This document shows positions 11,894 through 30,397 of a stretch of 59,641 nucleotides of DNA, piece after piece. Position numbers and translations under genes: made by a program. Source of the DNA: Phycisphaerae bacterium. Lineage in GTDB: Bacteria; Planctomycetota; Phycisphaerae; Tepidisphaerales; Tepidisphaeraceae. A model generated the notes under the pieces. It searched no databases. It was not told the DNA's origin and was given only the letters and a program-made list of their open reading frames with translations. Every line of letters begins with the position of its first letter. Position 1 is the stretch's first letter. The stretch covers positions 1 through 59,641 of the forward strand of contig JACMML010000038.1 of assembly GCA_014379105.1 (NCBI GenBank), in the 5' to 3' direction.

Positions 11894-12036
11894 AGGTCGG
11901 TGTTATTGCTCCAGTTCAGATCGATGCGCTGCGTATTCACATACGCCGCCAGCGCCGACGGCGCATCTGGCTCGGCCGCGCCCGTGGAGGGCAAGCGGTA
12001 GTGCCACTCTTTCTCCTCCTGCGGTATCATTCCCTC

Positions 12037-12486
12037 TTAGACGTTTCGCCGAATCACCGAAAACCCGCTTAGTGCTTCTGGCCGTGTCGTACGCCACTGG
12101 TGCCTGAGCGACAATAATACGATCGGTATATATACAGCAGACATCAAACAGCCATAGACTAGCGCCCACTCAACGTGGTGCAGTAGTCTCTTGCTGGATT
12201 TAAGAATGATGTTCAGTGACGGACTTTGCAAAATATTATTTGCGAGAACTGCACTAATATTAATTACTAGAATAACGACTACCAAAATACAGCCTCTACT
12301 AATTGGCCTCGAAAAGTAGCTTGTCAAGAAAGAGATTGTCACGACTTCCGCTAACAAAGTACCAATGCAGAAGACAACTATCTGAAGAATTTCGAGCAGT
12401 GAGGCACCCATAGCAGCCGCACCCAGGGCCACCAAAGGCGCTAGACACAAGCAAGCGAAAAATGCGCGCGCGATAGATGAATACAT
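12037..12486 (-). CDS. Hypothetical 4-TM membrane protein (AT-rich gene)
   Basis: 149 aa with four hydrophobic segments. Starts 17 nt downstream of the giant secreted-protein gene on the same strand. Hand counts of 12181-12240 and 12241-12300 are 21/60 G+C each. Confidence 0.6.
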   Translation of the reverse strand: MYSSIARAFFACLCLAPLVALGAAAMGASLLEILQIVVFCIGTLLAEVVTISFLTSYFSRPISRGCILVVVILVINISAVLANNILQSPSLNIILKSSKRLLHHVEWALVYGCLMSAVYIPIVLLSLRHQWRTTRPEALSGFSVIRRNV

Positions 12487-12503
12487 CGGATGCCACGAGA
12501 CTC

Positions 12504-15500: not shown

Positions 15501-16376
15501 CATTTCGGTGATCTGCCCGCCGATCAAGCCGTTGTCCACAACGCCGAGCGTCGTACCCTGCACCGCGGTGACGAACTCGGTCTGCAGCCCAACGCCGAGC
15601 CCATCGCCGCCCAGATACGTCAGTCCGTGCCGAAGCTTGTCCACCATGTAGGTGTAGGGAGAACTCGTTGGCGTGGCGGAATAGTCGATCAGCAGCACGT
15701 TGCTGTTGACGTTGAACTTTCCGAGGCTCCCCAGATCGAACGATTTGGTGCTGACCAGGCTCGCCGGCCCGACCGCGATCTCGCCGGCGGCGCTGCCGGT
15801 GAAATTCAACGACTGGAACGCCTGCGATCCTGCGAGCACCACTTTCACCGGCGAATTGACATGCAGCGAATCCAGCACCACACCGCTCACCCGGCCATCA
15901 AACCGATACGCCTCAAAGCCCTCGATCGACGCGGTGATGCCCGATTCGGTCAGCGCGATGACACCGGCATCCACCAAACTGCCGCCGCCGTCGACAGAAC
16001 CAATGACGACCAAGTCGGCGCTGGTCGTCCCGACGATCGACAGTGTGTCGCCGGCACCCGTGCCGGCATCGACGGTTGTATTATCCACAATCGCACTGCT
16101 AATCGTGACCTTGTCATTGCCGCCCAGCGCGTTGATGACGATGGAATCCACATCGGTGCTGGGAAACAGGCTGACGATGCTGTCAGCGAGATCACTGACG
16201 ACGACCTTGTAATCCGTGCCCACACGCAGCACCGAAATCGTGTCGGCATCGCTCGTCCCGGTAACGGTCAAGAGACGAGAAGTCGAATCAAGCGAAGCGC
16301 TGAGCAATTGTCGTGTTTCCAGCGATTCGACGAGCGGACGGACGGCGCGTGCCAAGACAGATGCGGTATTTTTCAT
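12504..16376 (-). CDS. Giant secreted multi-domain protein (4x FN3, dockerin-like Ca-binding repeats, Calx-beta-like module, unknown C-terminal domain)
   Basis: Start moved to ATG 16376 (MKNTASVLARAVRPLVESLETRQLLSAS). Two dockerin-like repeats (GDANLDGRVNGSDYALTD, GDFNIDLVVNGSDYAFAD). Four FN3-like units with LTWTD/LNWTD motifs. GGGGGGSGGG linker. Calx-beta-like block (VSVLDGSEVMEGD...VSFEAGETTRHIEIGV). About 230-aa C-terminal domain ending HDGFPCYEVYLYH.... Confidence 0.85.
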   Translation of the reverse strand: MKNTASVLARAVRPLVESLETRQLLSASLDSTSRLLTVTGTSDADTISVLRVGTDYKVVVSDLADSIVSLFPSTDVDSIVINALGGNDKVTISSAIVDNTTVDAGTGAGDTLSIVGTTSADLVVIGSVDGGGSLVDAGVIALTESGITASIEGFEAYRFDGRVSGVVLDSLHVNSPVKVVLAGSQAFQSLNFTGSAAGEIAVGPASLVSTKSFDLGSLGKFNVNSNVLLIDYSATPTSSPYTYMVDKLRHGLTYLGGDGLGVGLQTEFVTAVQGTTLGVVDNGLIGGQITEMGTFKNIPNKAVIVSYTWFGDANLDGRVNGSDYALTDTGLSSGHDDWFYGDFNIDLVVNGSDYAFADTGFSSQFVGAIGIYNAAPSSIYVQPLWEGAARVSWRGSASKYIVFASMDEGDYVQVAEVSGATHYDFRSPIAGQVRFRVAAVYASGTATQQHISTSRTREALHPVTKLEWAEQIAEDDGSDHTGYPYPSPPAAGEPDAPTALAAAAYLNTQRIDLTWTDNSNNETGFVVLRGENGSSFAEIATVAAGVTTFYDNTAAGGKTYYYRVIARNAMGDSAPSNTSSALAILKRPVGLYPEIVNWSTIDLNWTDPNPYEAGYVIESYDFINEEWLPLATTPANTQSYRVTGLTAQTDYQFRIKAVGERDSLFRASAVVTTPAWGHGDLPAAEELNIESIDGNTVRLTWTDNASDESGYSLRYRVVNGDGTFGEWVTVTIGANGDGSGSFDLGGLESETEYEFELIPLDPDAGGGGGGSGGGPSQSANFTTGVQAGRIGVFGLDHPELTPPYISVDWTPMEDTTYPNGQTVEYYKTAELHDETVTIIFTGLKTHRYIDLGLLLNADEDSYVRPEGASHGQLAIKVDGTEVPMEGSFSEPGWNRPLFYESWSPVEGENIIPHTDDTLTLTITGANYSRASHAWWIQSFWLSTIMPSVSVLDGSEVMEGDTQKLVYTVTRNMYGAERFPLVAPLEWFVAPSTASGNDLKIAPPTTVSFEAGETTRHIEIGVAVDRKLEGMENLAVQVQPSEDYLIGQKKALGFIYDQPVRLQISTFIKQYLVEDPGRFDSIFQGDGRGGLTGNGPAEFDEENTRFKTRQIADLEFVVDPNEPSAGNLLLVPSSISAQTGISVRYNASTSTVGHSGLPIFDPWVTISQAAMDDDILDDDVLKVDVGQAGTGGMTMSTRSIDSRTIEITIVGEAGNPLAVAAPAINYDLVLTIQVNADGYLNWWIEGAHDGFPCYEVYLYHELIYQHDSADQTPLSLGPPEEFGVSASGTIF

Positions 16377-16573
16377 TGAAAGACCCAAAAACGGGACTGG
16401 CGAAAACGATCGCACCCCTTGTGCTCCCTCTCCTCGACCACGAATCTGGGGAAAGTTTAGCGCTCTGAAAAGCATGAGTCAAGAAAAATATCGGGTTTCT
16501 CCCGATGGCATCGTGGCTCGCTCTGGGCACCGCGCCTGCGGTTCTGATGATCACGCATCGCTCGCGTTTTCCG

Positions 16574-19399: not shown

Positions 19400-20197
19400 T
19401 TACCGCGTCGCCTGCCCGTCGCCCCAGCCCGGGCCGGCGATGTGGCCTTCTTCGATCTTCAGGTCTTCACGGCGGCTGATCTTGGCGACCGTGCCGTCGC
19501 TGATCCAGATGATGCGGTCGCTGACCGCCAGCATCTTGTGATCGTGCGTGGCGCTTATGATCGTGACGCCTTTTTCCTTGTTCAGACCGCGCAGCAGCTC
19601 GATGATGATTTTGCCCGTATTCAGGTCCAGATTGCCCGTCGGCTCGTCGGCCAGGATGATCGTCGGATCGTTGGCGAATGCCCGCGCGATTGCGACGCGC
19701 TGCTGCTGGCCGCCGGAGAGTTCGCTGGGTTTGTTTTTCCAGCGGTGCTGTAGATCGACGCGCTTCAGAATCTCCATCCCCTTGTCCTGAGCGTCGGCGG
19801 TGTTCAAGCCGGCGAAGACCATCGGCAGCGTGACGTTCTCCAGCGCCGTCATTACCGGGATGAGATTAAACGTCTGGAAGATGTACCCGATCTTACGGCA
19901 GCGCATCCACGCCAACTCGTAACTGTCCAGCTGCGCGATATCCACTTCGTCGATATAGACCTTGCCCTCACTTGGCTTATCCAGGCCGCCGATCATGTTG
20001 AAGAACGTGGACTTGCCCGAGCCCGATGGGCCCATGATGGAGATGTATTCGCCGCGCTCGATCGAGACGGTGACGCCTTTGAGCGCCCGCACGATCTCCG
20101 TGCCCATCTTGTACTCGCGCTTCACGTCGATCGTGCGAACGGTGTATTCGGCGAGTTCGGTGGACGGGCCGTTGGTTGCTTCCGCGGCTTGTGTCAT
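19400..20197 (-). CDS. ABC transporter ATP-binding protein (MacB/LolD/FtsE-type)
   Basis: Walker [10 protein letters not shown], signature [14 protein letters not shown], Walker [14 protein letters not shown]-loop ATHD. Start moved to ATG 20197, which is preceded by GGAGAG. The ORF-track start at 20317 would overlap hicA. Confidence 0.93.
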
Positions 20198-20211
20198 TTT
20201 TCTCTCCGCGG

Positions 20212-20439
20212 TTACTGATCTCGAATAAATTCCTGCCACGTCATTCCAATGTCTTTCGCAATCTGTTGCAGCATCGGCGGGCGGATATCTTCTCCGTGAT
20301 CCGATACGGTAGTACACCGTCCGTCTAGGTGACGAAATTGCCTGTGTGAACCGCGTTGACGCACTTCGACAAATCCGAGTTTCAACAGAATCCGAGCAAC
20401 TTCACGGGGTTTTAGTACCGGCGCCTTGGGCATTGTCAC
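20212..20439 (-). CDS. hicA: Type II toxin-antitoxin system HicA family toxin (mRNA interferase)
   Basis: 75 aa. LKPREVARILLKLGFVEVRQRGSHRQFRH matches the HicA/YcfA dsRBD-like signature including the GSH motif. The GTG start overlaps the hicB stop (GTGA). An alternative ATG lies at 20433. Confidence 0.88.
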   Translation of the reverse strand: MTMPKAPVLKPREVARILLKLGFVEVRQRGSHRQFRHLDGRCTTVSDHGEDIRPPMLQQIAKDIGMTWQEFIRDQ

Positions 20440-20645
20440 GCAACCTTTACATTCTGCGTGCCCACAAACTCAGCCTGAAGCTGAGGCTCTCCGTCTTCCA
20501 GCAGCATCTGGATTACTTCGGTCAGTCGTTGGTTCAGTTCTTCGGTCGTTCGACCTTGCGCATGAGCGCCCGGAAAACCGGGAACATATGCAACCAACAT
20601 GTCTGAATCGGCTTCGCGTTCGATGATGGCTGTGAAATTTCGCAT
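20436..20645 (-). CDS. hicB: Type II toxin-antitoxin system HicB family antitoxin (short form, no DNA-binding domain)
   Basis: 69 aa. FTAIIEREADSDMLVAYVPGFPGAHAQGRTTEELNQRLTEVIQMLLE matches the HicB/UPF0150 N-terminal fold. It lies immediately upstream of hicA. Confidence 0.85.
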   Translation of the reverse strand: MRNFTAIIEREADSDMLVAYVPGFPGAHAQGRTTEELNQRLTEVIQMLLEDGEPQLQAEFVGTQNVKVA

Positions 20646-20664
20646 ATTTCAATTATAGCAACAA

Positions 20665-21666
20665 TCAGGCGTCCACCCGCATCGCGGCGATCGGTTCCAT
20701 CCGGGCGGCCTGCAATGCCGGGAGGATCGCGCCGCCGACGCTGAGGACCATGCCTACCAGCAGTGTGATGAGCACATTGGTCCAGACCTGATCCCAGAGC
20801 ACGTGATAAAACGCCGCCCCGCCGAAGCTGAGCGCGGCCATGCCGAAACTGACGCCGAGGCCGACAATTATGCCAAGCAGCGTGCCGACCGTGCCTTGAA
20901 ACAGGCTCTCCAGCAGGAATAGTTTGACGATGAACCCGTCGAGCGCGCCCAGGCACTTCATCGTGCCGATTTCGCGGAAACGTTCGGTCACGCTCATCAG
21001 CATCGCGTTGAGAATGCCGACAAACGCCACCAGCAGCGCCAGCGCCATCACCCAGCGCGTCTGGATGCGGTTGCCTTCGATCTCCTTCGGCTCGATGGGC
21101 ACGCCCTTGCTCAGCATCACGGCCTTGAGGTCTTCGGGCAGATTGATTTCGCGGCGGACGGCTTGGCGTTCGATCGATTTGTCGATCAGCAGCTTCACGG
21201 ATTTAAGCATCTCCGGTTCGGATGTCAGCAGCTTGTTCAGGTCTCCCCCCGCCAACGGGAGCGGGCCGCCTAGCGATTCTTTGACCGCGTCCCAATCGTC
21301 GCCATTGAATGCCTGTTTCGGATCGAACGGCGTCGCGTCCTTCGCGGCCGGGGGCGCGTACTGGGCGGCTTTGCGGATGTCCCCTTCCAGGGATTTTATC
21401 TCCGCATCGAGCGTATCCCGCTTCTTCTTCAGGGTCTTCACCGCTTCATTGTCCGGCCGCTGCATTTCCTGGGTCCATTGACGCATCCCATCGACGAGTG
21501 TCTCGGTGGTCATGATTGAACACAGAAACGCGAGCGCCAGCACGATCGCGCTGGTGACAAGCATGCTGCGGCTGAGCCGCAGACGAATGGATTTCCACGC
21601 GATCTCGATCGCCTTGCTGAGCGGCAATTTGATCTGGCGGGCGACGTTTTGCTTTTGCTTCGACAT
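20665..21666 (-). CDS. ABC transporter permease, FtsX-like (4 TM, helical ectodomain)
   Basis: 333 aa. TM1 (MLVTSAIVLALAFLCSIM), then a ~170-aa charged, coiled-coil-like extracytoplasmic region. C-terminal FtsX module (GILNAMLMSVTERFREIGTMKCLGA... plus two further TMs). Confidence 0.88.
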   Translation of the reverse strand: MSKQKQNVARQIKLPLSKAIEIAWKSIRLRLSRSMLVTSAIVLALAFLCSIMTTETLVDGMRQWTQEMQRPDNEAVKTLKKKRDTLDAEIKSLEGDIRKAAQYAPPAAKDATPFDPKQAFNGDDWDAVKESLGGPLPLAGGDLNKLLTSEPEMLKSVKLLIDKSIERQAVRREINLPEDLKAVMLSKGVPIEPKEIEGNRIQTRWVMALALLVAFVGILNAMLMSVTERFREIGTMKCLGALDGFIVKLFLLESLFQGTVGTLLGIIVGLGVSFGMAALSFGGAAFYHVLWDQVWTNVLITLLVGMVLSVGGAILPALQAARMEPIAAMRVDA

Positions 21667-21676
21667 ACTTTTTATT

Positions 21677-21808
21677 GGCCGCAGGTGAACGCAGATGGAC
21701 GCAGATCATTCAAATAAAAGACATTCGAATCACAATCCAAGGCGCGTTACTGACGTCATTCTTTTCGTTCCATTCTTCATCCGCGAAAATCCGCGTTCAT
21801 CTGCGGCC
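21677..21808. repeat. Inverted-repeat-bounded AT-rich intergenic element
   Basis: GGCCGCAGGTGAACGC (21677-21692) versus GCGTTCATCTGCGGCC (21793-21808): 15/16 complementary. The arms are built from CGCAGAT-type words. It fills the gap between the PqqD-like gene and the FtsX permease gene. Confidence 0.6.
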
Positions 21809-21817
21809 AAAACTCTT

Positions 21818-22192
21818 CTATTTCTTCTCCAACGGGATGCCGACCAGCCCTTTGCGGATCAGCATTTCCAGGAACTTGACCGTCGGCACCTGGGCCTCGC
21901 GGAGATTTAGATCGTACCGCGCCGCGAGGCGCTTGATGATCTGGCGGACGGTGGTTTTTCCGTCGATGCTTTCCCAGACGAAGACGCCGATCGTATCAAA
22001 CTCGTAGGACTTGGTGGCGTTCTCCGGCAGACGGAAGATCAGCCGGCCCCACTTGGGTTGACGCATCTGCACCTTCAGCATGCCGCCGTCGTCGGGCAGC
22101 GGCTGCATAACGGCCTCGACAAGCCGGATCGGCTTGGCCTCGAGCGCCTGCTCGGGGGTGAGGCGAGGTTTTTTCTTTCGGAACAGCATCAC
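21818..22192 (-). CDS. PqqD-like (RiPP-recognition-element-like) small protein
   Basis: 124 aa. YEFDTIGVFVWESIDGKTTVRQIIKRLAARYDLNLREAQVPTVKFLEMLIRKGLV follows the PqqD winged-helix pattern (ligand strand, then 'G.rtv.eI...l...y....e....dv..fl..L...gl'). Confidence 0.75.
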   Translation of the reverse strand: MMLFRKKKPRLTPEQALEAKPIRLVEAVMQPLPDDGGMLKVQMRQPKWGRLIFRLPENATKSYEFDTIGVFVWESIDGKTTVRQIIKRLAARYDLNLREAQVPTVKFLEMLIRKGLVGIPLEKK

Positions 22193-22210
22193 TCAGTACT
22201 AGATCATCCG

Positions 22211-23125
22211 TCACATATTCTTAGCCCAGCCGACGCTGGTCAGTAATTCGGTCATCGCCGTCGGCTCGTTGCCCTGCACGATAACAATGCGATTTCTCGT
22301 TTCATCGTGCAATCCGAGCACCGTCAGCTCCTTTGCCAGAGTCCGCATCCAGAAAAAGCGGCGCTTGCGTCGCAGGATTCCCTGTCGAACCTTCACCGGC
22401 TCGGCGGCCGTTTCGAGCGCCAGGTCGGTGACGCTACGGAGCAGCTTATAGAACTTTCGGACCGTCTTTTCTTGCTGGGCAAGCCAGGAATCAATCGGCT
22501 GCCTAATCAGCGCCAGTGAAGCCGGGCCGATCTGCCGGAGTGTCATCGTCGAACGCTTTTTGCGAAACGACAACGACAAATCCCCGGCATTAAGCCGATA
22601 CCACTGCATCGTCCACCCGGCCGGGGTGCGGCAGGAGATGTCAAAGAGCGACCACGCCTGCGGCACATCACGCAATTGCTCCTGCAATGACGGCAAGACC
22701 TTCGCCGCCAGCACCGTATCCCGTTCTTTCACGTGATGGACGATTTCCATCACCCGGCCGCTGCGTTCACTCCAGCCGAGCCACACGTCGCGGCCGGGCG
22801 GGTCGGCCTCGACGTACAATCGCGAAACGCGCCACGCCGCCGCATCCGGCATCGCGTGATCCTTCGCTTCCGCCGCGGCGAGCGCGCCCACTTCCGACCG
22901 CATGGCGCGCTCGGCCCATTTCGCCGAATCGCCGCGCTTCATCATCCGCCAGCGAATCCCCAGCTTCGCCTGCTGCAGGTCCGCCAGCAGGATCATTCCC
23001 TGATCCCAATCGCCGTCCACTTTCACCGGATTCCACGAATCCGGAATTCGGAGCTGCCAGCCGTGCCAGGCGAGCAGTTGCGATTTGCGATTTGCGATTT
23101 GCGATTCTTCAGTACGTTCGGACAT
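22211..23125 (-). CDS. Hypothetical cytoplasmic protein (no recognisable domain)
   Basis: 304-aa ORF with GC-rich third positions, 18 nt upstream of the PqqD-like gene and 22 nt downstream of the OPT-like gene. No TM segments or known motifs were seen. Confidence 0.75.
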   Translation of the reverse strand: MSERTEESQIANRKSQLLAWHGWQLRIPDSWNPVKVDGDWDQGMILLADLQQAKLGIRWRMMKRGDSAKWAERAMRSEVGALAAAEAKDHAMPDAAAWRVSRLYVEADPPGRDVWLGWSERSGRVMEIVHHVKERDTVLAAKVLPSLQEQLRDVPQAWSLFDISCRTPAGWTMQWYRLNAGDLSLSFRKKRSTMTLRQIGPASLALIRQPIDSWLAQQEKTVRKFYKLLRSVTDLALETAAEPVKVRQGILRRKRRFFWMRTLAKELTVLGLHDETRNRIVIVQGNEPTAMTELLTSVGWAKNM

Positions 23126-23146
23126 CTGTCTCTCAATCGCAAATCG
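23079..23146 (-). promoter_or_regulatory. (TGCGATT)x4 heptamer repeat in codons 7-16, plus a complementary 12-nt copy in the 5' leader; the hairpin encloses the RBS and start codon
   Basis: Four exact TGCGATT units lie at 23079-23106. AATCGCAAATCG at 23135-23146 is their reverse complement. ATG 23125 and GAGAG lie between the arms. Confidence 0.7.
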
Positions 23147-23147
23147 T

Positions 23148-25160
23148 TCAATATGGCGACTGAAACACGCTCTTACTAATAAACACCAGTCCCAGCGCCA
23201 GCATCATCATCAATCCCATGCCGCAACTGAAGCCGGCGAAAAAGACGATGATGTACTGCTTCCACATATCTCCGAATTTTTTCGCGAAATAGAACCGGCC
23301 CAGCAGCGCGCCGATGAACTGCGGAATGATCACATGCGGCGCGGCCTGATCGAGCCCGCGGATCAGCCCGTAAACCAGCAGGATCGGGGCGCCGAAGAAT
23401 CGCAGGATGCCGAATGACGCGACGGCGGTTCCGAAGCCCGCGTAGAGGACCCACGGCTTGAACGCCTCGGCGAACGCGCTGTTCTCCCCGCCGGGCATCG
23501 TGCGGCTCATCAATACGCCTTGCCGGTAGGCTTGCGCTTCCCACATCTTCTCGGTGAACGGAAACGACTGGCTCGGCACCGGTGCGATGCTCCAGATGAA
23601 CTGGCTGAAGACCAGCGTGGAGATGAATGCGATCGGTAGGATGAAGATCTCGGCCTTGAACATGGAGATTATCTTCGTGCCGGTTAACTCCGTCTTGCGG
23701 AAATAGAGCGTCTGCGATCCGTAATTGTGCGCCGGGAACGGCGCGAACCAGATGGCGGCGCCCTGGTAGCCGGTGAGGATGAACGTGGCCTCGCGGACGA
23801 AGGGGATATTCACCGAGTTGCCGACGATGCCTTCCATCCTGGCCGAGACGTAGCTGATGATGGGCGTGTAGACGAATCCGTAGAACACAAACACGCCCAG
23901 CAGCACCCAGGTCACTTCCGAGCCGAGCCCGTCCTTATGAGCCGCGCGCAGAAGGATGTATGCGGTGAGAATGGTGATGGAGGTGACCGTCACGTAAATC
24001 AGCACCGCGATCCAGAGCTTAATATCTCCTCGCCCCGCCGGCGGGTGCAGGAACGCGGCCAAGCCTTGCCGCTCGCCGCCGGACTGATTGCCCTTCATCT
24101 TGCGGGCGGCGCGCAGGCTTTGGAAGACGTGGTAGAAGCCGATCGCCGCGATCGCGAACGTGAGGCCTAGTCCGAAGCTGAAATAGAAATCCAGCGTGTT
24201 GCTGTTGAGCGTGCGGATCGCGCCCATCCCCGGCGACCAGTTGTGCAGCGCCCCCGAGTGATAAAGCACTTGGTTGAGAATGATGCCGATCACCAGCCCC
24301 GCGAAGCTGCCGATCATCGCCCAGAACGGGAGCACCATGCCGAGGATGACCAGCCCGATATCAAACGACAACATCATCGGCACGGCCGGGAGGAGGCGCT
24401 CGGTGTTGTCGGTGAGGTCCTTGAACGGCAGCGGGAATATCTCGATCTTCTCCGGCAGAAACGCCCCGCTGACCGCCGGCAGCGCCAGGTAGATCGTGGC
24501 GAACGCCATGCCCAGCACCGAGCCGAAGCTGAAGACGCGCCATCGCCAGGTCTCCTGCCCGCCGGACGCGTCCGCCAGCGCCGTCACGCCCGCCGCACCG
24601 ACCGGCGCCATCGGGAACGGGAGTTTTTCCACGTCGCTGGTGATGCGGTACATGATGTACCCGAGCCCGAAGTTATCGAACCGGCTGAGCACCATCCCCA
24701 GCGCCATCAGCCCGATCGGCGCAAGCCATTCGCGGTGCAGAAAACTGCGCGAGCCCAATACGTCCACCGATTGCGGCGCGTACCACGACGGTATCTTGTC
24801 GGCGATGCCGAACTTCCGCATTTCCTCCGACTGCACGAGAAACTGCTGCCAAATGAGCCCCTGTCCGATGCCCGAATGCACCAGCGTCGCACCGGCCATG
24901 TAATACAAAAGGTAAATTTCCGGCCGCGAGAGTTGCGTGAAGGAACGGCGTGCGACTTCCATGAAAAGGATGATCGTCACCCACTGCGCCGCCGGCCCGA
25001 TATCCGCCCCGGTCACCAGCTGCATATACATGCTGGCCGGCGTCATGATCAGCCCGACAAAGAGCCCACCAAGGATCGCCTTAAGCCCGAACGCATCCAC
25101 CCACGTATCGGGCGGCTTCATCAGGTCGCGGAATTGTTGGAGTTCTTTGTCTTCAGTCAT
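23148..25160 (-). CDS. Polytopic (~16 TM) membrane protein, OPT-family-like putative peptide transporter
   Basis: 670 aa with about 16 hydrophobic segments by eye. The N-terminal block FGLKAILGGLFVGLIMTPASMYMQLVTGADIG resembles the OPT signature (T.RA...G...G......n.Y.gLk.G). The family assignment is not verified. Confidence 0.8.
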   Translation of the reverse strand: MTEDKELQQFRDLMKPPDTWVDAFGLKAILGGLFVGLIMTPASMYMQLVTGADIGPAAQWVTIILFMEVARRSFTQLSRPEIYLLYYMAGATLVHSGIGQGLIWQQFLVQSEEMRKFGIADKIPSWYAPQSVDVLGSRSFLHREWLAPIGLMALGMVLSRFDNFGLGYIMYRITSDVEKLPFPMAPVGAAGVTALADASGGQETWRWRVFSFGSVLGMAFATIYLALPAVSGAFLPEKIEIFPLPFKDLTDNTERLLPAVPMMLSFDIGLVILGMVLPFWAMIGSFAGLVIGIILNQVLYHSGALHNWSPGMGAIRTLNSNTLDFYFSFGLGLTFAIAAIGFYHVFQSLRAARKMKGNQSGGERQGLAAFLHPPAGRGDIKLWIAVLIYVTVTSITILTAYILLRAAHKDGLGSEVTWVLLGVFVFYGFVYTPIISYVSARMEGIVGNSVNIPFVREATFILTGYQGAAIWFAPFPAHNYGSQTLYFRKTELTGTKIISMFKAEIFILPIAFISTLVFSQFIWSIAPVPSQSFPFTEKMWEAQAYRQGVLMSRTMPGGENSAFAEAFKPWVLYAGFGTAVASFGILRFFGAPILLVYGLIRGLDQAAPHVIIPQFIGALLGRFYFAKKFGDMWKQYIIVFFAGFSCGMGLMMMLALGLVFISKSVFQSPY

Positions 25161-25199
25161 GGATGCAAAATCCGAATCACGAAATCAGAAATCTGAACA

Positions 25200-25316
25200 A
25201 ATGACGAAACTCGAATGACGAATCAATGAGGAAATGTTCAATGACAGAATGACTAAGAAACTCTGCTTTCGTCATTCCGTCATTCGGATTTGATTCGTCA
25301 TTCGAGTTTCGTCATT
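25200..25316. repeat. Perfect 27-bp inverted repeat bounding a 63-nt AT-rich core (word GAATGACGA)
   Basis: AATGACGAAACTCGAATGACGAATCAA (25200-25226) is the exact reverse complement of 25290-25316. It lies between the giant permease stop and the OPT-like gene start. Confidence 0.85.
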
Positions 25317-25339
25317 CGTCATTCAAGATCCTTTCCAGT

Positions 25340-28300
25340 CTATGCAAGGCGGACAACCTCACTTGCCTCCGTTGTCACCACCTCGTCCGGCACCACCTTG
25401 AACAGCTTCTTACTTTCGTCAACGTAGTCTTTCATGCGCAGCGGGCTGAGGGATCGCCATTGCAGGAACTGTTTGCGGAGTTCGGTCAGGAAGCTGCGGT
25501 TCATGCGCCACCAGCTGCCGTCGTCGCCGCTGAGGCGCTGGAGGACGACCTGCACTTCGTAGATGTCGGGGAATTCGCCGGGGTGGATCAGCAGAAGCAG
25601 GTGCTGGCGGACGCCGAGATCGAACGGGGTGAGCCAGATCACCGTCTTGAGCCCGCGCGTGGGTTTGCCGTCGCCGCTTTGGCCTGAGAAGGCCTCGATC
25701 TTTCCGGCGCTGAATTTGCCGATCGACCCTTCCTGATGCGCCTCGAAAAACTCGGCAAGGTACGCGACGACGCCTTGCGCGGCGGTGCGGTTAATCGTGA
25801 ACGGGAGCCCGGCGATGATCTGGTCGTCCTTCGGCGCCGGGACGCGCCAGCTTCGCTCGATGCTCGGGGCGGCGATCTTGCTGGCGAGCCTGGCCGGGAC
25901 CAGCGCCGACAGCAGGACGATCAGCAGGATCAGACCCATCGTCATCATCGCGCTGGTGCCAGAATAGTTCATCGTGACATTGCCCAGCCAGCCGAGCTTG
26001 AGCAGCGCGGTGCCGGCGCCCTGGCCGATGATATAGCCGAAGACTGAGCCGATCAGGCCGTACGTCAGCGCCTCGGCGACGAAGAGCACGCCTACGTGAA
26101 ATGGCGCTAGTCCGAGTGAGGTATAGACGTGGATCTCACGCCGCCGCTCGGCGATGGAGCCCATCATCGTGTTGAAGATGATCAACCCGCCGATCGCAAG
26201 CGGAATCGCGACATTCGCCCCGCCGCCGATGCTGGAAAGATTGCTGGCGGACACCAGCTTCACGCCGTCGCTGTAACCGGCGAAGGTCGCCAGTGCGAAG
26301 CGTTTGGTCATGTCATCCACTATCGCTTTAACCTTCGCATCCCGATCGGCGGGCTTGTCGTCATCGGCCGCGACGCGGACGCCGACGGTGCGCAGCGTCG
26401 TATTCTCCAGCCGCTTGCTGATCGCGGCCGGCACGATCGCGAACTGCGTGGAGGGCAGGTGCTCGTAAGTCGCCGACGCCTCGGCGGCGGATGAATTTGC
26501 ATCGAGATCGAGCGTGTTGGCGTCATTCCCGTCGGTGAGCTTGCGGCCGCTGGCATCGAGCGCGCCGGAGCTGTATTTCAGCGGCGCGATCGATTCTCCG
26601 GAAAGCGTATTCACGCGCTGGTCAAAATCATTAGCGTCATACGTGCCGGCGATTTCCAGCTGCATCCCCGCGATCTGCAGCTTGCCGCCGACCTTCAGCT
26701 TCATCTGGTCCAGCGTGGATTGCGAGAGATAGACGATGTTGGTCTCGCCGTTCTCGAGCCGGTCAAAATTAGTGATGACCTGGCTGATCGGCGAGAGCAA
26801 GCTTTCACCAGGCGAGAGCCCGAGCATCGCCTGCACCGGAACCACGCGGGCGGCCGCGCCGTCGATCCCGACGCCGCCGGCAACCAGATGCACCTGGTCC
26901 TTGGTGTCGCCGGCGTTGAGCGTCCACCAGCGCTGTACGAACGTCTGGCCGACATACGCCGACTTCAGCGAATCAATCGCCTCAACCGGCATCGATCGGA
27001 AACCGCGCTGCCGCAGCAGCAAACCGGGATACGTGGCATCAACGCCGGTCGGCAGGGAGATCGTGCTTTGGTAGCGGCTGGCCGACGTGAAACACAGGAC
27101 CGCGAACGTGATCAGCACCACCGTGATGCTCGTCAGCGCCGTGCGGAACTTGCGGCGGCGCATGTTCGCGATGCCGAGCATCACCGCGCTCATCAGCACG
27201 CTCGCGCTGGCAATGCTCGCCCCGTCGGACGTGCCGCGGCCGGAGCGGAGGCGCTTTAGCTCGGTATCGAATTTCCCGTACACCACGCTGATGACGATCA
27301 GCGACATCAACACGATCGCGAACGCAAGAATGATGATCAGCGGACTGGAGCTGATCTTAAATGCCGGGTGAAACATCCACAGCGCCGCGGCCATCAGCGC
27401 GAAGATGCCTGATGCGTAGGCGATCTGGCGATAGATGCTCGGCGTGCCGATCACCAGGCGCTCCATGCAGAACGCAAACGGCACCGACAGCAGCAGCAGG
27501 AAGATCGCGGCATAGATCACGTCATTGGCCATCTTCTGCACCGCGTCGTAGACGCGCGCTTCGTCGGCCCAACCGCCGGTGGCGTTACGCATCATGCCGT
27601 CGGCATCGTCGGCCTGGAGCAGTTTTTTGGCGGTGTCGATTTGCGCCGCGGCGTTGCCGTGCATCGTGTCAATCAGCGTGCTGCTGACGCCGGCCTTACG
27701 GTATTGTTCGATGCGCGATTCATTGAGCCGCCAGAAATCGGTCGCGGTGACCAGCGCGATCGGACCCAGCCGACTGAGCTCCTTAACCAGGTAGCCGTCC
27801 CCTTCGCCGCGAGCGCCTTCCTGCTGGCGCGGCTTGTTGGCTTCGGGCATGTTGAGCAGTGCGATGCGGTTCCCGATTCGGCCATACCGAAACAGCAGAT
27901 ACGCGCGCGATCCCGGCTCCAGCGCCCCGGCCATCATCTGGTTGTAGAGCGCGGCGTTGAATCGCTGCGGCTCGGAGTTGCGCCGGGCATCCATCAGCTG
28001 CACTTCGCCGAGCGATTGCAGAAAGCGCGGGTCATAGAGCCCAAGCAGTGTGTATTCCTGACAATCGAAAACGACCGATTTAAGCGGCACGATCGTCTGG
28101 TCGAGGTTGACAGTCTGCTTGAGGTCCGCCGCCTGCTTGCCGAGGTCGGTGCAGGAGAGGATAGCGCCGGTGCCGGGCTCGAAGCGGTAGACGTTGACCG
28201 CCATCAGCTTCAGATCGCCGACGCGCGGCAGGCCTTCAAATTCATACCGGCCTTCCGAATCGCAATTCACGATTTCCAATCGCCGCACGCCCACCGCATA

Positions 28301-30397
28301 CGGCATCCATCGCACGGGCGGAATTTTCCGCACGGACGTGATGTATTCGTAGGTCGCGATAAACCCGTCGCGCGGCAGGTCAGGGATCGGCTTGCCCGAT
28401 GCGGTGGAGACGACTTGGACTTTAAAGTCGTTGATGTTCCGGCGGTATTCCGGTTGGCCGAGGAATTTGGGGTCGTCCCACGCCTGGCGCAGCAGATCGA
28501 GCACCGCGGCGGCCTGGAGCTTGATCGAATCGAGCCTGAGATTCGCCAGCGTGTCGGCCGGGGTGTCGCGGCGCGGGCGCAGGTCTTCCAGCGTCGCCAT
28601 TGTGAACGCGGGAATTCCCCACGGCACGCCGACTTCCACCGGCAGCCCGATCGGCGCGGTAAGATAGGAGACCGGCGTTCGCGTGAGCTTCAGCGGCTCA
28701 AAATCCATCACCTTCGCCAGCGGCTTGAACCATGCCGCCGCCGTCTCGGGCTTGCCATTGCCGGCCGCTTTTTCGAACCATTCGCGATGTTCCTGAATCT
28801 GCGTAATCGCCGACTGCTTCGCCACCGCGCCCCAGTACACCGGCCCGACGCGCTGGCCCATGTCCGCCAAGTCCAGGCCAACCATCAGCTCGATCAGGCG
28901 GTCATCGTTGTTTCGCGGATTCGGGTCGTTGCTGCGTTGGACCGAGCCGGGCAGATCGTCATTCAGGTTCTTCGCCAGCCACTGGTAAAGCTCGATGCGT
29001 CGCTCGAGTTGCTGCTTACGGTGCTGCCACTGCTGGAGCAGGCCTTCGGTGCCGGACGTGTCGCCGAGCCGCGTCATCACGCGCTGGAGCATCGCCGGCG
29101 CGTCCTGCCCGAATTCGGCAAGGGATTTAGGGCTCGCGGTGACATGGAAGCGGATCTGCCCCAGGCGAATCAATCGCGACTGGACGTCGTCAATCTGTTT
29201 GCGCTTCGCGTCATCGAGTTGCTCCGCCGGCAACACGCGGAGGCGAAACAGCTCGTCCTGACCCAGCGCAACGTCGGTTTCGATGACCTTAATGATGCGG
29301 TTGATCAGCGTGCGATGTCGGACGATATCCAGCCAGGTGGGATCGCCATTCAATCCGCGCGCGAGGGAGAGATCGTGCTCGATCGCTTTAAGCTGCGGGT
29401 CCGCCTCTTCGTCAATTTTTCCCTGCCAGGGACGCGGCGCATCGCCCAGGGCCATCATCATCTGGCGCGAGCCCATGAGGTTGTAGGCATCAGCACCGGT
29501 GAACGCGACCATCACCGGTCGCCGTGGCGGGTTGTTGGCAAAGTCGCGTAGCATTTCCAGCGCCGCCGCGGTCTGCACCGCCTGGCCGGCCGCGGGGGAC
29601 AGGTCGTACGCGACGCCGGTTGCGTCAAACGGCGCGACGATCGTCAGCGCCGCCCACGCCTTGCCGGCATTCCCGCGCTCGAAGCTGGCCGGCAGCGGGT
29701 TTTTCGGAGAAACGTACGCGTAAAGATTCGACGCCTTCACGCGTTTCCAACTCGCAGACACCTTCAGATATCCGTCGGCCACGCCGGAGGACCGCATCTG
29801 CTCGGCAAATCCGTCGTCGCCGACAAAGAACCTCGGCAAGTTCACGGCGATCGGCAACTCGTGCGATCGCATCTCCAGTTGAGACAGATCCTTCGACCCG
29901 ATGATGATGACTGCGCGGGCACCGAAGTAGAACAGGTTGCGCCACTTGTCCTTGGCGGATGATTCCACCACCGCGATGTTGCCGTCGATCAGCGTCGGCT
30001 TGAGCTCTTTGTATTCGGCCGTTCCGCAATAGACGAGCTTGCCGGTAAGCCCTTCGGCGGGCGTCGTATTCAGGCGCACGCCGGCCGGGAAAAGTGGGAA
30101 AACCGGGACGCTTCGTCCGGCGATCGTCAGCGTTGCTTCGGTCGTCTGCGGCACGAGCATGTCGAACTCATGCACCTGCAGTTTTACGCCGGGCAATGCG
30201 CGGATTTCGGTTGTGAGATAGTTGAGTGCCGCGTTATATCCAGGCGATCCGGCGCTCCGCGTGCTCGGCGCGGCAAGTGCCTGTAAATCGCGGGAAAATC
30301 GCTCGCCGTCAAACGCCGCGTGGACGGTGGCCGCGAGCCCGAGCAGGCCCAGCAGAACCAGTCGCATTAACGTGGCCGGGCGATTGATCATCAGCAT
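25340..30397 (-). CDS. Giant fused double-FtsX (MacB-type) permease with ~1000-aa PA/M28-like ectodomain
   Basis: Start moved to ATG 30397 (MLMINRPATLMRLVLLGLLGLAATVHA signal/anchor). PA-like block GKLVYCG...GNIAVVESS...GARAVIIIGS. M28-like blocks TIVAPFDATG, SPAAGQAVQTAAALEMLRDF, VMVAFTGADAYNLMGSRQ. Three TMs follow, then RRRKFRTALTSITVVLITFAVLCF, a ~330-aa ectodomain and an FtsX module (IIFNTMMGSIAERRREIHVYTSLGL). A ~190-aa C-terminal soluble tail completes the protein. Confidence 0.88.
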   Translation of the reverse strand: MLMINRPATLMRLVLLGLLGLAATVHAAFDGERFSRDLQALAAPSTRSAGSPGYNAALNYLTTEIRALPGVKLQVHEFDMLVPQTTEATLTIAGRSVPVFPLFPAGVRLNTTPAEGLTGKLVYCGTAEYKELKPTLIDGNIAVVESSAKDKWRNLFYFGARAVIIIGSKDLSQLEMRSHELPIAVNLPRFFVGDDGFAEQMRSSGVADGYLKVSASWKRVKASNLYAYVSPKNPLPASFERGNAGKAWAALTIVAPFDATGVAYDLSPAAGQAVQTAAALEMLRDFANNPPRRPVMVAFTGADAYNLMGSRQMMMALGDAPRPWQGKIDEEADPQLKAIEHDLSLARGLNGDPTWLDIVRHRTLINRIIKVIETDVALGQDELFRLRVLPAEQLDDAKRKQIDDVQSRLIRLGQIRFHVTASPKSLAEFGQDAPAMLQRVMTRLGDTSGTEGLLQQWQHRKQQLERRIELYQWLAKNLNDDLPGSVQRSNDPNPRNNDDRLIELMVGLDLADMGQRVGPVYWGAVAKQSAITQIQEHREWFEKAAGNGKPETAAAWFKPLAKVMDFEPLKLTRTPVSYLTAPIGLPVEVGVPWGIPAFTMATLEDLRPRRDTPADTLANLRLDSIKLQAAAVLDLLRQAWDDPKFLGQPEYRRNINDFKVQVVSTASGKPIPDLPRDGFIATYEYITSVRKIPPVRWMPYAVGVRRLEIVNCDSEGRYEFEGLPRVGDLKLMAVNVYRFEPGTGAILSCTDLGKQAADLKQTVNLDQTIVPLKSVVFDCQEYTLLGLYDPRFLQSLGEVQLMDARRNSEPQRFNAALYNQMMAGALEPGSRAYLLFRYGRIGNRIALLNMPEANKPRQQEGARGEGDGYLVKELSRLGPIALVTATDFWRLNESRIEQYRKAGVSSTLIDTMHGNAAAQIDTAKKLLQADDADGMMRNATGGWADEARVYDAVQKMANDVIYAAIFLLLLSVPFAFCMERLVIGTPSIYRQIAYASGIFALMAAALWMFHPAFKISSSPLIIILAFAIVLMSLIVISVVYGKFDTELKRLRSGRGTSDGASIASASVLMSAVMLGIANMRRRKFRTALTSITVVLITFAVLCFTSASRYQSTISLPTGVDATYPGLLLRQRGFRSMPVEAIDSLKSAYVGQTFVQRWWTLNAGDTKDQVHLVAGGVGIDGAAARVVPVQAMLGLSPGESLLSPISQVITNFDRLENGETNIVYLSQSTLDQMKLKVGGKLQIAGMQLEIAGTYDANDFDQRVNTLSGESIAPLKYSSGALDASGRKLTDGNDANTLDLDANSSAAEASATYEHLPSTQFAIVPAAISKRLENTTLRTVGVRVAADDDKPADRDAKVKAIVDDMTKRFALATFAGYSDGVKLVSASNLSSIGGGANVAIPLAIGGLIIFNTMMGSIAERRREIHVYTSLGLAPFHVGVLFVAEALTYGLIGSVFGYIIGQGAGTALLKLGWLGNVTMNYSGTSAMMTMGLILLIVLLSALVPARLASKIAAPSIERSWRVPAPKDDQIIAGLPFTINRTAAQGVVAYLAEFFEAHQEGSIGKFSAGKIEAFSGQSGDGKPTRGLKTVIWLTPFDLGVRQHLLLLIHPGEFPDIYEVQVVLQRLSGDDGSWWRMNRSFLTELRKQFLQWRSLSPLRMKDYVDESKKLFKVVPDEVVTTEASEVVRLA

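Follow-up and report, generated by a model that had tools for sequence, protein, structure and literature searches.

Gene content of the locus

The window, i.e., the entire stretch of 59,641 nucleotides analysed here, contains a row of eight ORFs on the minus strand, all of which were confirmed in the ORF list at the coordinates first given for the row. The genes and intergenic features are, from the highest coordinate downwards:

25340..30397, minus strand: large permease of 1685 aa (ORF with an FtsX match)
25161..25339, minus strand: intergenic long hairpin with 30-nt arms, 97% complementary (MFE -76.9 kcal/mol, z = -8.3)
23148..25160, minus strand: 670-aa polytopic membrane protein, divergent OPT-superfamily carrier (OPT through its relatives)
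22211..23125, minus strand: 304-aa cytoplasmic protein (ORF without TM segments)
21818..22192, minus strand: 124-aa PqqD-like (RRE-type) protein, putative peptide binder (PF05402)
21667..21817, minus strand: intergenic long hairpin with 32-nt arms, 81% complementary (MFE -58.8 kcal/mol, z = -5.6)
20665..21666, minus strand: 333-aa four-TM FtsX permease (FtsX, 2.1e-19)
20436..20645, minus strand: hicB-like gene (23.4 bits, below the threshold of 27.3)
20212..20439, minus strand: hicA (HicA, 1e-17)
19400..20197, minus strand: 265-aa ABC ATPase of the LolD/MacB/FtsE (type VII) kind (ABC_tran, 3.4e-35)

Recomputed gaps amounted to 14, 19, 18, and 22 nt plus 151 and 179 nt, in agreement with the original reading of 14–22 nt for all but two of them, and hicB and hicA overlap by 4 nt according to their coordinates. 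The two longer gaps had been said to hold one hairpin each, and both indeed fold strongly; that at 25161..25339 belongs to no Rfam family. The assignment of a LolD/MacB-type ATPase, two FtsX permeases, a PqqD-like protein, and HicA was backed by Pfam and NCBIfam.

Conservation of the cassette

Conservation was analysed in 82 related loci, 41 of them with enough flanking DNA; the phylum of each is the label on its MAG record. In 39 of the 41 well-flanked loci the large permease gene immediately precedes the OPT-like gene, and 28 of the 41 have all six core genes on one strand, arranged in two permuted orders. The core system consists of these six genes, encoding the large permease, the OPT-like protein, the 304-aa protein, the PqqD-like protein, the small FtsX permease, and the ATPase. 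Cassettes occur in Planctomycetota, Verrucomicrobiota, Omnitrophota, Sumerlaeota, Nitrospirota, and others, and at one locus (L071) they form one operon of overlapping or abutting genes. The synteny predicted for the row was thus clearly present, and we concluded that the six-gene membrane machine is real and has been kept together over several bacterial phyla.

The genes flanking the cassette are not conserved among the related loci. No membrane-fusion protein, outer-membrane partner, radical-SAM enzyme, or cyclase is conserved near the cassette, and neither is a precursor peptide; the small ORFs that recur there are antisense shadows of coding genes. The lack of such partners, noted initially for the window, extends to its relatives. 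A seventh conserved gene, DUF6785/DUF6784, lies beside the cassette in 36 of the 82 loci and is absent from the window. In Fontivita the DUF6785 gene adjoins a Wza-like polysaccharide export gene, a context that was seen in this genome only. Some loci are partial: two have neither the 304-aa nor the PqqD gene (L019, L054), three have only the large permease and OPT-like genes (L022, L026, L041), and one retains the OPT-like gene without the others (L063). The modules can therefore be separated, as they are in Fontivita (L001 versus L026). One MAG carries paralogous copies (L073 and L081).

The hicB-hicA pair gave no tblastn match in any of the 82 related loci. It occupies the FtsX–ATPase junction, whose length in relatives lies between about 50 nt and 5.6 kb. 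The junction equivalent to 25161..25339 measures 2–20 nt in several loci of other phyla, and that equivalent to 21667..21817 measures 0–50 nt in many other loci. Judged by these comparisons, hicB-hicA and both hairpins are lineage-specific, later insertions that lie outside the system, and their earlier inclusion among its parts was not upheld.

The large permease

The start ATG of the large permease at 30397 agrees with the start of the homolog alignments. Pfam detected FtsX at residues 1400–1508 (1.1e-12) and in all 24 homologs, and MacB_PCD in 7 of these; the family profile also matched the YtrF, MacB, LolF, and LolE structures in the PDB. Family hydropathy yielded eight TM helices in a 1+3 / 1+3 arrangement, with the following parts, all encoded on the minus strand:

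residues 10-28: TM1
residues 29-959: ectodomain 1, roughly 930 aa
residues 28-325 (29423..30316, minus strand): PA and M28-like pseudo-peptidase module in ectodomain 1 (family profile against the PDB)
residues 960-1039: TM2-4
residues 1086-1104: TM5
residues 1105-1389: ectodomain 2, MacB-periplasmic-like
residues 1390-1502: TM6-8, the FtsX domain
residues 1503-1685 (25343..25891, minus strand): cytoplasmic C-terminal domain

This topology is that of the predicted double FtsX permease; however, a single FtsX domain is detectable by sequence, and hhalign detected no similarity between the first 3-TM bundle and the second FtsX unit (probability 0.5%).

The PA and M28-like module of ectodomain 1 is followed by a long helical insertion. 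In the PDB the family profile matched the aminopeptidases 2ek8 (2.3e-18) and YwaD (6.7e-11), nicastrin (5e-5), and, weakly, the transferrin receptor, and Pfam assigned M28 to 6, Nicastrin to 2, and PA to 1 of the 24 homologs. The proposed peptidase origin thus holds at the family level, whereas the window protein's own M28 match stayed below threshold (17.7 versus 21.3 bits). None of the 24 homologs has the catalytic Glu-Glu pair, two retain the His ligand, and the window clade has lost the Asp ligand. By the loss of these residues, the M28/PA ectodomain is predicted to be catalytically dead. In nicastrin and the transferrin receptor the PA/M28 fold serves as a ligand receptor, and the loss of catalytic residues in the large permease, as in these two proteins, suggests a receptor role for its ectodomain as well. 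Like nicastrin, the transferrin receptor, and GCPII, the large permease carries a PA and M28-like ectodomain on a membrane protein. In contrast to them, it is bacterial, the ectodomain is anchored to an ABC permease, and the helical insertion breaks up the M28 fold, after which come additional β-rich domains.

The C-terminal domain contains many invariant residues, lies outside the sole Pfam matches of the large permease, and has no sequence match in the PDB. Its AF2 model (pLDDT 84.6) consists of a β-sheet and two long helices, with weak fold matches (TM 0.3–0.44) to PsbP, DcrB, SciW, and START-like proteins.

The ATPase and the small FtsX permease

Walker A, signature, Walker B, and H-loop are all intact in the translated ATPase, which is 80–89% identical within Tepidisphaerales. 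The top NCBIfam models were LolD (230.9 bits), MacB (216), and FtsE (205), each under its equivalog cut-off, and the best PDB matches were MJ0796, MacB, LolD, YtrE, YbbA, and BceA. The 333-aa permease has a TM pattern that fits four TM helices and a helical ectodomain of about 150 aa. Outside Tepidisphaerales most loci lack this ectodomain (about residues 58–177), their protein having 217–250 aa; in the second clade it is enlarged to about 490 aa. Many lineages have two ATPase genes, and both this and the ectodomain-poor small FtsX fit a hetero-oligomeric engine. A pairing of the small FtsX with the large permease's FtsX unit, as between LolC and LolE, is probable.

With MacB and other type VII mechanotransducers (MacAB-TolC, YtrEF, YbbAP) the cassette shares the FtsX four-TM unit, the MacB-like periplasmic domain, and an NBD that is nearest to MJ0796, MacB, LolD, YtrE, and YbbA. 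The eight-TM single chain of the large permease recalls duplicated permeases of the YbbP/ADOP type. In contrast to these systems, the cassette has no fused NBD, membrane-fusion protein, or outer-membrane partner, and the first four-TM half of the large permease is not detectably FtsX. The large permease additionally has a pseudo-peptidase ectodomain of ~930 aa and a conserved cytoplasmic C-terminal domain, and it is obligately linked with an OPT-like carrier and a PqqD-like protein. The likeness to LolCDE lies in LolD as the top-scoring NBD model and in a possible hetero-pairing of two FtsX subunits with one or two NBDs. However, LolD reached 230.9 against a cut-off of 307.75 and lolCE 46 against 362, no Lol partners occur near the cassette, and its extra components have no Lol counterpart. 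With all equivalog scores far under the cut-offs, the cassette was not placed in LolCDE, FtsEX, or MacAB.

The OPT-like carrier

The window's 670-aa protein, originally termed OPT-like, has no Pfam match even at E = 10 and belongs to no NCBIfam family. In contrast, 13 of 22 diverse relatives match PF03169 (OPT; best 1.3e-16), and the ortholog at L071 scored 28.7 bits against a gathering score of 25.8, the one family member above it. We therefore count the protein as a member of the OPT superfamily because its relatives, rather than the window protein, match PF03169. It resembles the OPT family (TC 2.A.67) in its length of about 670 aa and its approximately 15–17 hydrophobic segments, as determined by family hydropathy, but represents a divergent subfamily. 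The carrier is the most conserved protein of the cassette, with >4494 homolog clusters; the 120 best listed matches are 65–85% identical, and the named ones are mostly from Tepidisphaeraceae. No OPT member working with an ABC engine was found in the literature, and we know of none so paired.

The 304-aa and PqqD-like proteins

The 304-aa protein has no family in Pfam or NCBIfam, yet it is no orphan, since its family comprises 1442 representatives at 50% identity. The AF2 model (pLDDT 94.7) predicts with high confidence a non-enzyme-like, binding-type fold of two β-sheet/helix lobes; matches to PsbP, TplEi, MucB/RseB, and Apa were weak (TM below 0.5). The PqqD gene, where present in the related loci, always lies directly downstream of the 304-aa gene, and in one MAG (L080) the two are fused. 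The 124-aa product matched PF05402 above the Pfam gathering score (46.6 versus 23.4 bits, 4.3e-12), in line with its designation as PqqD-like. The closest NCBIfam models, ScmD and lasso PqqD, stayed under their cut-offs, and the best PDB match was a lasso-peptide PqqD-family chaperone (9x90_B, 2.7e-5).

The cassette thus shares with RRE/PqqD chaperones of RiPP pathways (PqqD, lasso B1, ScmD) an above-threshold PqqD domain, a lasso-peptide chaperone as closest structure, and a dedicated adjacent, occasionally fused partner. In contrast to those pathways, neither a precursor peptide nor a radical-SAM enzyme, protease, or cyclase accompanies the PqqD-like protein, whose partner has two lobes and a non-enzyme-like fold and whose setting is a membrane transport cassette.

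A possible function

No literature on the combination of ABC, OPT, and PqqD genes was found. Conserved synteny and the lack of placement in known systems support the original description as a candidate undescribed envelope or peptide-handling system; its function is one that we infer. We tentatively propose that the system uses ATP to capture and handle a peptide ligand and is coupled in this to the OPT-like carrier, a model in which complex formation, stoichiometry, ligand, and direction of transport are all predicted features. In type VII ABC proteins, ATP hydrolysis is converted into motion of extracytoplasmic domains, and no channel is formed. The LolD/MacB-type ATPase would drive FtsX-type permease units, with the small FtsX and the FtsX unit of the large permease paired up. 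The large permease, with its MacB-like periplasmic domain and its presumably dead PA/M28 ectodomain, would be the moving part, and the OPT-superfamily carrier would give the membrane path that the ABC engine itself lacks. A peptide or polypeptide ligand would be captured outside the membrane and then pass through the carrier. Cytoplasmic receipt or sensing of the ligand would fall to the PqqD-like protein, its obligate 304-aa partner, and the C-terminal domain of the permease, the 304-aa/PqqD pair acting as ligand acceptor or feedback sensor. Import is favoured because, to our knowledge, every characterised OPT transporter is an importer.

Several observations count against peptide import. RRE domains, which bind leader peptides, are familiar from pathways of peptide maturation and export, and a nutrient importer has no obvious need of an RRE-type protein. 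The window's 670-aa protein itself has no OPT match, and the modules are separable. That the OPT-like protein and the ATPase are very highly conserved suits a housekeeping envelope function as well, and the 304-aa protein and C-terminal domain yielded weak fold matches.

Leader-guided export of a peptide or protein is a rather unlikely alternative, in which the PqqD-like RRE and the 304-aa partner would bind a cytoplasmic peptide or hydrophobic cargo, the OPT-like carrier would move it outward, and the type VII engine would expel it or place it at the surface or in the periplasm, as MacB does with the enterotoxin STII. Leader-peptide binding by RRE/PqqD proteins, the lasso-peptide chaperone as nearest structure, and a 304-PqqD fusion akin to RRE-partner fusions would suit this reading, as would the fact that type VII ABC systems work on substrates already outside the cytoplasm. 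Fold matches to T6SS immunity/chaperone proteins (TplEi, and SciW in complex with a TM domain) point the same way but are weak, no small ORF, cargo gene, or modifying enzyme is conserved in or near the cassette, and the characterised OPT transporters known to us all import. We give a similarly low probability to a machine that builds or remodels the envelope along the lines of LolCDE, FtsEX, or LptB2FG. Its engine would act on a component of the envelope (lipoprotein, lipid-linked intermediate, or wall hydrolase) by extraction, positioning, or activation, with the OPT-like protein and DUF6785/6784 as flippase-like partners and the cytoplasmic proteins as regulators. LolD as nearest ATPase model, the housekeeping-level identity within Tepidisphaerales, the Wza-like neighbour in Fontivita, and the weak START/PsbP-like matches, which could indicate binding of a hydrophobic ligand, are consistent with it. 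However, the Lol and FtsEX scores are far under the equivalog cut-offs, no LolA/B-like or EnvC-like partner or hydrolase is conserved nearby, and we know of no OPT member that flips lipids. The polysaccharide context is moreover restricted to one genome, and paralogous copies in one MAG would be unusual for an essential single-copy machine.

A chance head-to-tail arrangement, in this genome, of two or three unrelated transport units might be suspected from the long intergenic gaps, the toxin-antitoxin insertion, and the separable modules in Fontivita. Linkage across phyla in two permuted orders amid unconserved flanking genes strongly disfavours it, as do the overlapping start and stop codons in L071 and the filling of the gaps by non-conserved insertions, and we regard it as highly improbable. 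An anti-phage defence module is equally improbable, even though the PADLOC model PDLC01991 (CARF_m8--CARF_LolE_TM) matches the large permease at 2.1e-56, the ATPase matches mad3, and a HicAB pair lies inside the row. The best PDLC01991 stretch spans only profile positions 362–606 of 810 at residues 1308–1562, i.e., from the last part of ectodomain 2 through TM6-8 into the beginning of the C-terminal domain. The ATPase matches reflect the generic ABC fold, no other protein of the row matches a defence-specific model, and HicAB is unique to the window. GC content is even over the whole region, and across phyla the synteny is stable and the sequences are highly conserved.

Conservation of the cassette across genomes

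ORF calling recovered all eight minus-strand genes of the original prediction with identical coordinates, and its internal starts for the large permease (ATG 30397) and the ATPase (ATG 20197) matched the alignment starts of the homologs. The boundaries of the row are clear, with a convergent GNAT gene ending at 19396 on one side and, beyond 30471 on the other, a divergent β-propeller gene; the further neighbors, encoding a SpoIIE phosphatase, a histidine kinase, and ArgJ, are unrelated. Spacing between the genes is 14, 19, 18, and 22 nt, hicB and hicA overlap by 4 nt, and two long gaps measure 151 and 179 nt. The features referred to below by position are:

25340-30397, minus strand: gene for the large permease (1685 aa)
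25161-25339: long gap with hairpin
21667-21817: long gap with hairpin
20212-20645, minus strand: hicB-hicA

Genome scanning with the 670-aa OPT-like protein yielded 80 loci; exact peptide patterns were used, so this number is not a census. According to the titles of the metagenome-assembled genomes (MAGs), these loci belong to Tepidisphaerales, other Phycisphaerae, Planctomycetia, Omnitrophota, Sumerlaeota, Nitrospirales, Opitutales, other Verrucomicrobia, Lentisphaerales, Kiritimatiellae, Anaerolineales, and Deltaproteobacterial and Polyangiaceae MAGs. The two MAGs labeled Anaerolineales by title sit in different clades. Gene content was then counted by tblastn and locally built HMMs.

Table. 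Cassette members at the 41 loci whose OPT-like gene has flanks of at least 9 kb (upstream) and at least 6 kb (downstream)
Large permease immediately upstream of OPT-like gene: 39/41
304-aa protein: 35/41
PqqD: 35/41
Small FtsX: 33/41
ATPase: 31/41
All six core genes on one strand: 28/41

Conservation of the neighborhood, on which the original prediction had staked its claim of a linked system, was thus observed in several phyla as judged by MAG titles, both for the permease-OPT pair (39/41) and for all six genes (28/41). Two gene orders recur. In 17 loci the order is permease, OPT, 304, PqqD, FtsX, ATPase, and at least 8 loci have 304, PqqD, FtsX, ATPase, permease, OPT, and a second ATPase. 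These orders define two modules, one comprising permease and OPT-like gene, the other 304, PqqD, FtsX, and ATPase. At related locus L071 the cassette genes abut or overlap one another and are flanked by unrelated genes. Exceptions occur: the OPT-like gene stands alone at one locus (L063), only permease and OPT-like gene are present at three (L022, L026, L041), and 304 and PqqD are missing at two (L019, L054). In the cultured Fontivita pretiosa the cassette is split, the permease-OPT pair (L026) lying approximately 390 kb from the other module (L001). The modules are therefore separable.

Among the related loci, no flanking family beyond the six core genes was conserved except DUF6785/DUF6784. 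This polytopic membrane protein of approximately 700 aa has its gene beside the cassette, in the same orientation, in 36 of 82 loci and constitutes a frequent seventh member, although its position varies between clades; it is absent from the window. Examples are:

L010:12106-14388, related locus, DUF6785+DUF6784
L036:3007-5004, related locus, DUF6785+DUF6784
L001:7810-9945, Fontivita pretiosa, DUF6785+DUF6784
33 more loci, DUF6785+DUF6784

The hicB-hicA pair had also been counted as part of the row. HicA is genuine (1e-17, 64.4 vs. 27 bits) and HicB scored below threshold, but the 82 related loci have neither gene, and we dropped both from the cassette. The pair lies between the small FtsX and ATPase genes; in Tepidisphaerales this junction is a hotspot of insertion, varying in length between about 50 nt and 5.6 kb. 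The predicted hairpins in both long gaps fold strongly (z = -8.3 for 25161-25339, z = -5.6 for 21667-21817) and consist of short repeated motifs (GAATGACGAA; GCAGATGAACGC), the core motifs being essentially confined to these gaps with no copies elsewhere in the window; neither gap matched an Rfam family. At the same two junctions many Tepidisphaerales relatives carry other strongly folding inserts, and in several loci from other phyla the junctions are 2-20 nt long. A promoter/terminator scan remained at chance level. The GC content is even throughout the cassette region; elsewhere in the window, a low-GC stretch (12001-14000, 0.505 vs. ~0.60) overlaps the 3' part of the gene for a 1323-aa fn3/DUF3238 protein (12504-16475, minus strand).

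The large permease carries a pseudo-peptidase ectodomain

Family-averaged hydropathy gave eight transmembrane helices for the large permease, arranged 1+3 / 1+3.

Table. Topology of the large permease from family-averaged hydropathy
Residues 10-28: TM1
Residues 29-959: ectodomain 1
Residues 960-1039: TM2-4
Residues 1086-1104: TM5
Residues 1105-1389: ectodomain 2
Residues 1390-1502: TM6-8
Residues 1503-1685: cytoplasmic C-terminal domain

FtsX (PF02687) was matched at residues 1400-1508 (1.1e-12, 48.6 bits vs. a cut-off of 25.5), and Pfam searches across 24 homologs returned FtsX in 24, MacB_PCD in 7, M28 in 6, Nicastrin in 2, and PA in 1. In a profile of 24 sequences compared to the PDB, the C-terminal half aligned with YtrF, MacB, LolF, and LolE; within the FtsX unit, a MacB_PCD-like extracytoplasmic domain separates TM1 from TM2 and aligns to MacB residues 481-662. 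Between the first three-helix bundle and the second FtsX unit hhalign detected no similarity (probability 0.5%), and thus the term 'double FtsX' is a statement on topology only.

In the same profile comparison, residues 28-325 matched M28 aminopeptidases that contain a PA domain (2ek8, 2.3e-18; YwaD, 6.7e-11) and nicastrin (5e-5), with a weak match to the transferrin receptor; Pfam M28 remained below threshold on the window's protein (17.7 vs. 21.3). M28 metallopeptidases bind zinc through His, Asp, Glu, Asp, and His and use a catalytic Glu. The Glu-Glu pair is replaced in 24/24 homologs (by D-A, D-N, D-G, G-A, or the like), just 2/24 keep the first zinc-binding His, and the window's clade has lost the Asp ligand. 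With the catalytic residues gone, the ectodomain is a pseudo-peptidase, bearing out the earlier suspicion of a peptidase origin. It probably resembles nicastrin and the transferrin receptor, as a receptor-like domain, rather than an M28 enzyme.

Conservation is strong in the C-terminal cytoplasmic domain, which lies outside the protein's only Pfam matches and gave no PDB sequence match. Its AF2 model (pLDDT 84.6) is a β-sheet with two long helices, for which comparison to solved folds gave weak matches to PsbP, DcrB, SciW, and START-like proteins.

At related loci L002/L058 (2189-5323 + 5320-7470; 7934-8485 / 8458-9930) and L004 (4657-7752 + 7688-9949) the large permease occurs as two ORFs. 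L002 additionally has a frameshifted OPT-like gene and a 23S_rRNA_IVP-family gene between permease and OPT-like gene. The split ORFs and the frameshift could be real fission or decay, or errors of long-read assembly. An antisense ORF of 636 aa within the permease gene (27641-29551, plus strand) is Arg/Ala/Pro-rich, as expected of a shadow ORF in high-GC DNA, and shows no sign of being a real gene.

The OPT-like protein, the PqqD/304 pair, and the ABC components

The 670-aa protein is the most conserved cassette member, with >4494 homolog clusters; the best 120 listed matches are 65-85% identical, the named ones being mostly from Tepidisphaeraceae. It has about 15-17 hydrophobic segments and matched nothing in Pfam, NCBIfam, PADLOC, or PDB sequence searches, nor did its family profile give a meaningful PDB match. 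OPT (PF03169) was matched by 13 of 22 diverse relatives (best 1.3e-16), though not by the window protein itself; the L071 ortholog passed the gathering score (28.7 vs. 25.8). Judged from these profile matches, the protein is best viewed as belonging to a divergent OPT-superfamily branch and would be OPT-like at the superfamily level only. OPT transporters mediate proton-coupled uptake of oligopeptides or metal chelates. The family aligned to DUF6785 over the N-terminal 190 columns, including a common E-x-LPFP motif, at an hhalign probability of 19.6% (E = 1.2e-3), which leaves homology unproven; no DUF6785 member matched OPT.

The 304-aa protein had been described as cytoplasmic and without a domain. 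In agreement, it has no transmembrane segments and no match in Pfam, NCBIfam, PADLOC, or PDB searches, and its family comprises 1442 representatives at 50% identity. The AF2 model (pLDDT 94.7) has two β-sheet/helix lobes, and the closest solved folds, all with low TM-scores, are the binding proteins PsbP, TplEi, MucB/RseB, and Apa; the comparison gave no enzyme-like match. The family had no homology to the permease C-terminal domain.

The PqqD assignment of the 124-aa protein was likewise upheld (46.6 bits vs. a gathering cut-off of 23.4), the closest solved relative being a lasso-peptide PqqD-family chaperone, while the PQQ_PqqD equivalog scored below its cut-off (23.5 vs. 46). By its profile scores it is a true PqqD-domain protein, and its surroundings are not those of PQQ biosynthesis or of a RiPP cluster. 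A Verrucomicrobia MAG encodes a 304-like region (residues 66-341) and a PqqD-like region (373-488) in one uninterrupted frame (L080:1213-2700, plus strand). This apparent natural Rosetta-stone fusion, for which an assembly error is possible, supports the two proteins forming a physical pair. A second candidate fusion at L082 was rejected as an ORF-extension artefact.

The 333-aa small FtsX protein scored 70.2 bits against FtsX (2.1e-19; cut-off 25.5), and its ectodomain between TM1 and TM2 is lost in most lineages. The ATPase matched ABC_tran (3.4e-35), and Walker A, signature, Walker B, and H-loop are intact in the translation. Its closest PDB matches are MJ0796, MacB, LolD, YtrE, YbbA, and BceA; the top NCBIfam models, LolD (230.9 bits), MacB (216), and FtsE (205.2), all remained under their equivalog cut-offs. 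Many lineages have two ATPase genes, and at one locus (L035) the ATPase is missing locally.

Comparison to known systems

The cassette shares the FtsX four-helix domain and a nucleotide-binding domain of the LolD/MacB/FtsE kind, with intact motifs, with type VII ABC systems of the FtsX/MacB superfamily. However, it scored below the equivalogs of LolCDE (LolD 230.9 vs. 307.75, lolCE 46 vs. 362.45) and FtsEX (FtsE 205.2 vs. 264.85, FtsX_Gneg 24.9 vs. 255), so that the placement in either system which would have undone the original prediction did not occur. MacAB-TolC has its nucleotide-binding domain fused to the permease together with membrane-fusion and outer-membrane partners, whereas the cassette has none of these (MacB 216 vs. 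966); as predicted, no such partner is conserved nearby, DUF6785/6784 being the sole added neighbor family. In PQQ biosynthesis and RiPP clusters a precursor peptide and a modifying enzyme accompany the RRE. The cassette has neither: a search for precursor peptides found no conserved small ORF, only antisense shadows of coding genes, and no enzyme family is conserved nearby, in line with the predicted lack of precursor, radical-SAM enzyme, and cyclase. In contrast to M28 enzymes with zinc ligands and catalytic Glu, the ectodomain has lost its catalytic machinery.

Full-text literature searches returned no paper with DUF6785 or DUF6784 and none combining PqqD, FtsX, and OPT; searches on nicastrin/FtsX/M28 gave nothing relevant, and those on the CARF_m8 model name and CARF/LolE nothing useful. 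What is new about the cassette is the combination: its parts belong to known superfamilies, and for three components no family has been described.

Possible function of the cassette

The cassette joins a type VII-style ABC engine with a receptor-like, dead-peptidase ectodomain to a tightly linked carrier of the OPT superfamily, and includes, in the cytoplasm, an RRE protein whose obligate partner, the 304-aa protein, does not look like an enzyme. In the function we propose, the ATPase would drive motion of the permease ectodomains, and these would bind a peptide or polypeptide outside the cytoplasm; a putative path across the membrane would be provided by the OPT-like protein, and the PqqD/304 pair together with the permease C-terminal domain may serve as acceptor or sensor on the cytoplasmic side. 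Import is the favored direction because, to our knowledge, characterized OPT proteins import. Small FtsX and the FtsX unit of the large permease may form a LolCDE-like hetero-complex, which we favor because the former is almost devoid of an ectodomain in most lineages and two ATPase genes are present in many. Taken as a whole, this reading is tentative, and we would put it somewhat short of an even chance.

Leader-guided export, to which an RRE protein would be suited and for which no conserved precursor ORF was found, appears unlikely. Envelope biogenesis of the Lol/FtsEX kind would fit an ATPase that scores best with LolD, but the cassette stays below the equivalog cut-offs of both LolCDE and FtsEX, and we consider this reading similarly improbable. 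Chance juxtaposition, with separable modules on one side and six genes on one strand in most of the loci counted on the other, is very improbable. A role in defense was suggested by the PADLOC model CARF_m8--CARF_LolE_TM, which matched the large permease at 2.1e-56 over profile positions 362-606 of 810. However, the best stretch (permease residues 1308-1562) is mostly the FtsX unit, and the CARF sensor domain that marks PADLOC's CARF-LolE effectors was absent from it; the defense reading was rejected on this ground and retains only a very slight chance. The match suggests that this FtsX subfamily may also have been recruited as a CRISPR-associated membrane effector.

Understanding of type VII ABC systems rests on a few models, namely MacB, LolCDE, FtsEX, and BceAB. 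A conserved engine tied to a secondary-carrier-type protein and an RRE would show coupling to a separate transmembrane path. It would also give a first functional context to three uncharacterized families (the 304-aa protein, the permease C-terminal domain, and DUF6785/DUF6784), give context to a large divergent OPT branch, and extend RRE biology past natural-product pathways. Conceivably, though we find it rather doubtful, the type VII mechanotransducer with a pseudo-peptidase receptor like nicastrin or the transferrin receptor, the OPT carrier, and a cytoplasmic RRE-adaptor pair (PqqD and 304) act as one complex, a new class of envelope machine widespread in the PVC superphylum and several further environmental phyla; this would be a new route of peptide or protein translocation and the first use of an RRE outside RiPP maturation. 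The carriers are abundant, little-studied environmental bacteria (Planctomycetota, Verrucomicrobiota, Omnitrophota, Sumerlaeota), and the cassette bears on their handling of peptides and macromolecules at the envelope.

Several local arrangements were also observed. The DUF6785-304-PqqD-FtsX-ATPase module of Fontivita pretiosa adjoins a Wza-like polysaccharide export gene and a gene for a weakly GT87-like protein (L001:6215-7675). Loci of Nitrospirales and Pirellulales (L043, L046, L051) have tandemly duplicated ATPase genes downstream of the small FtsX gene, and two contigs of one Planctomycetota MAG (L073 and L081) carry two paralogous permease-OPT-ATPase sets.
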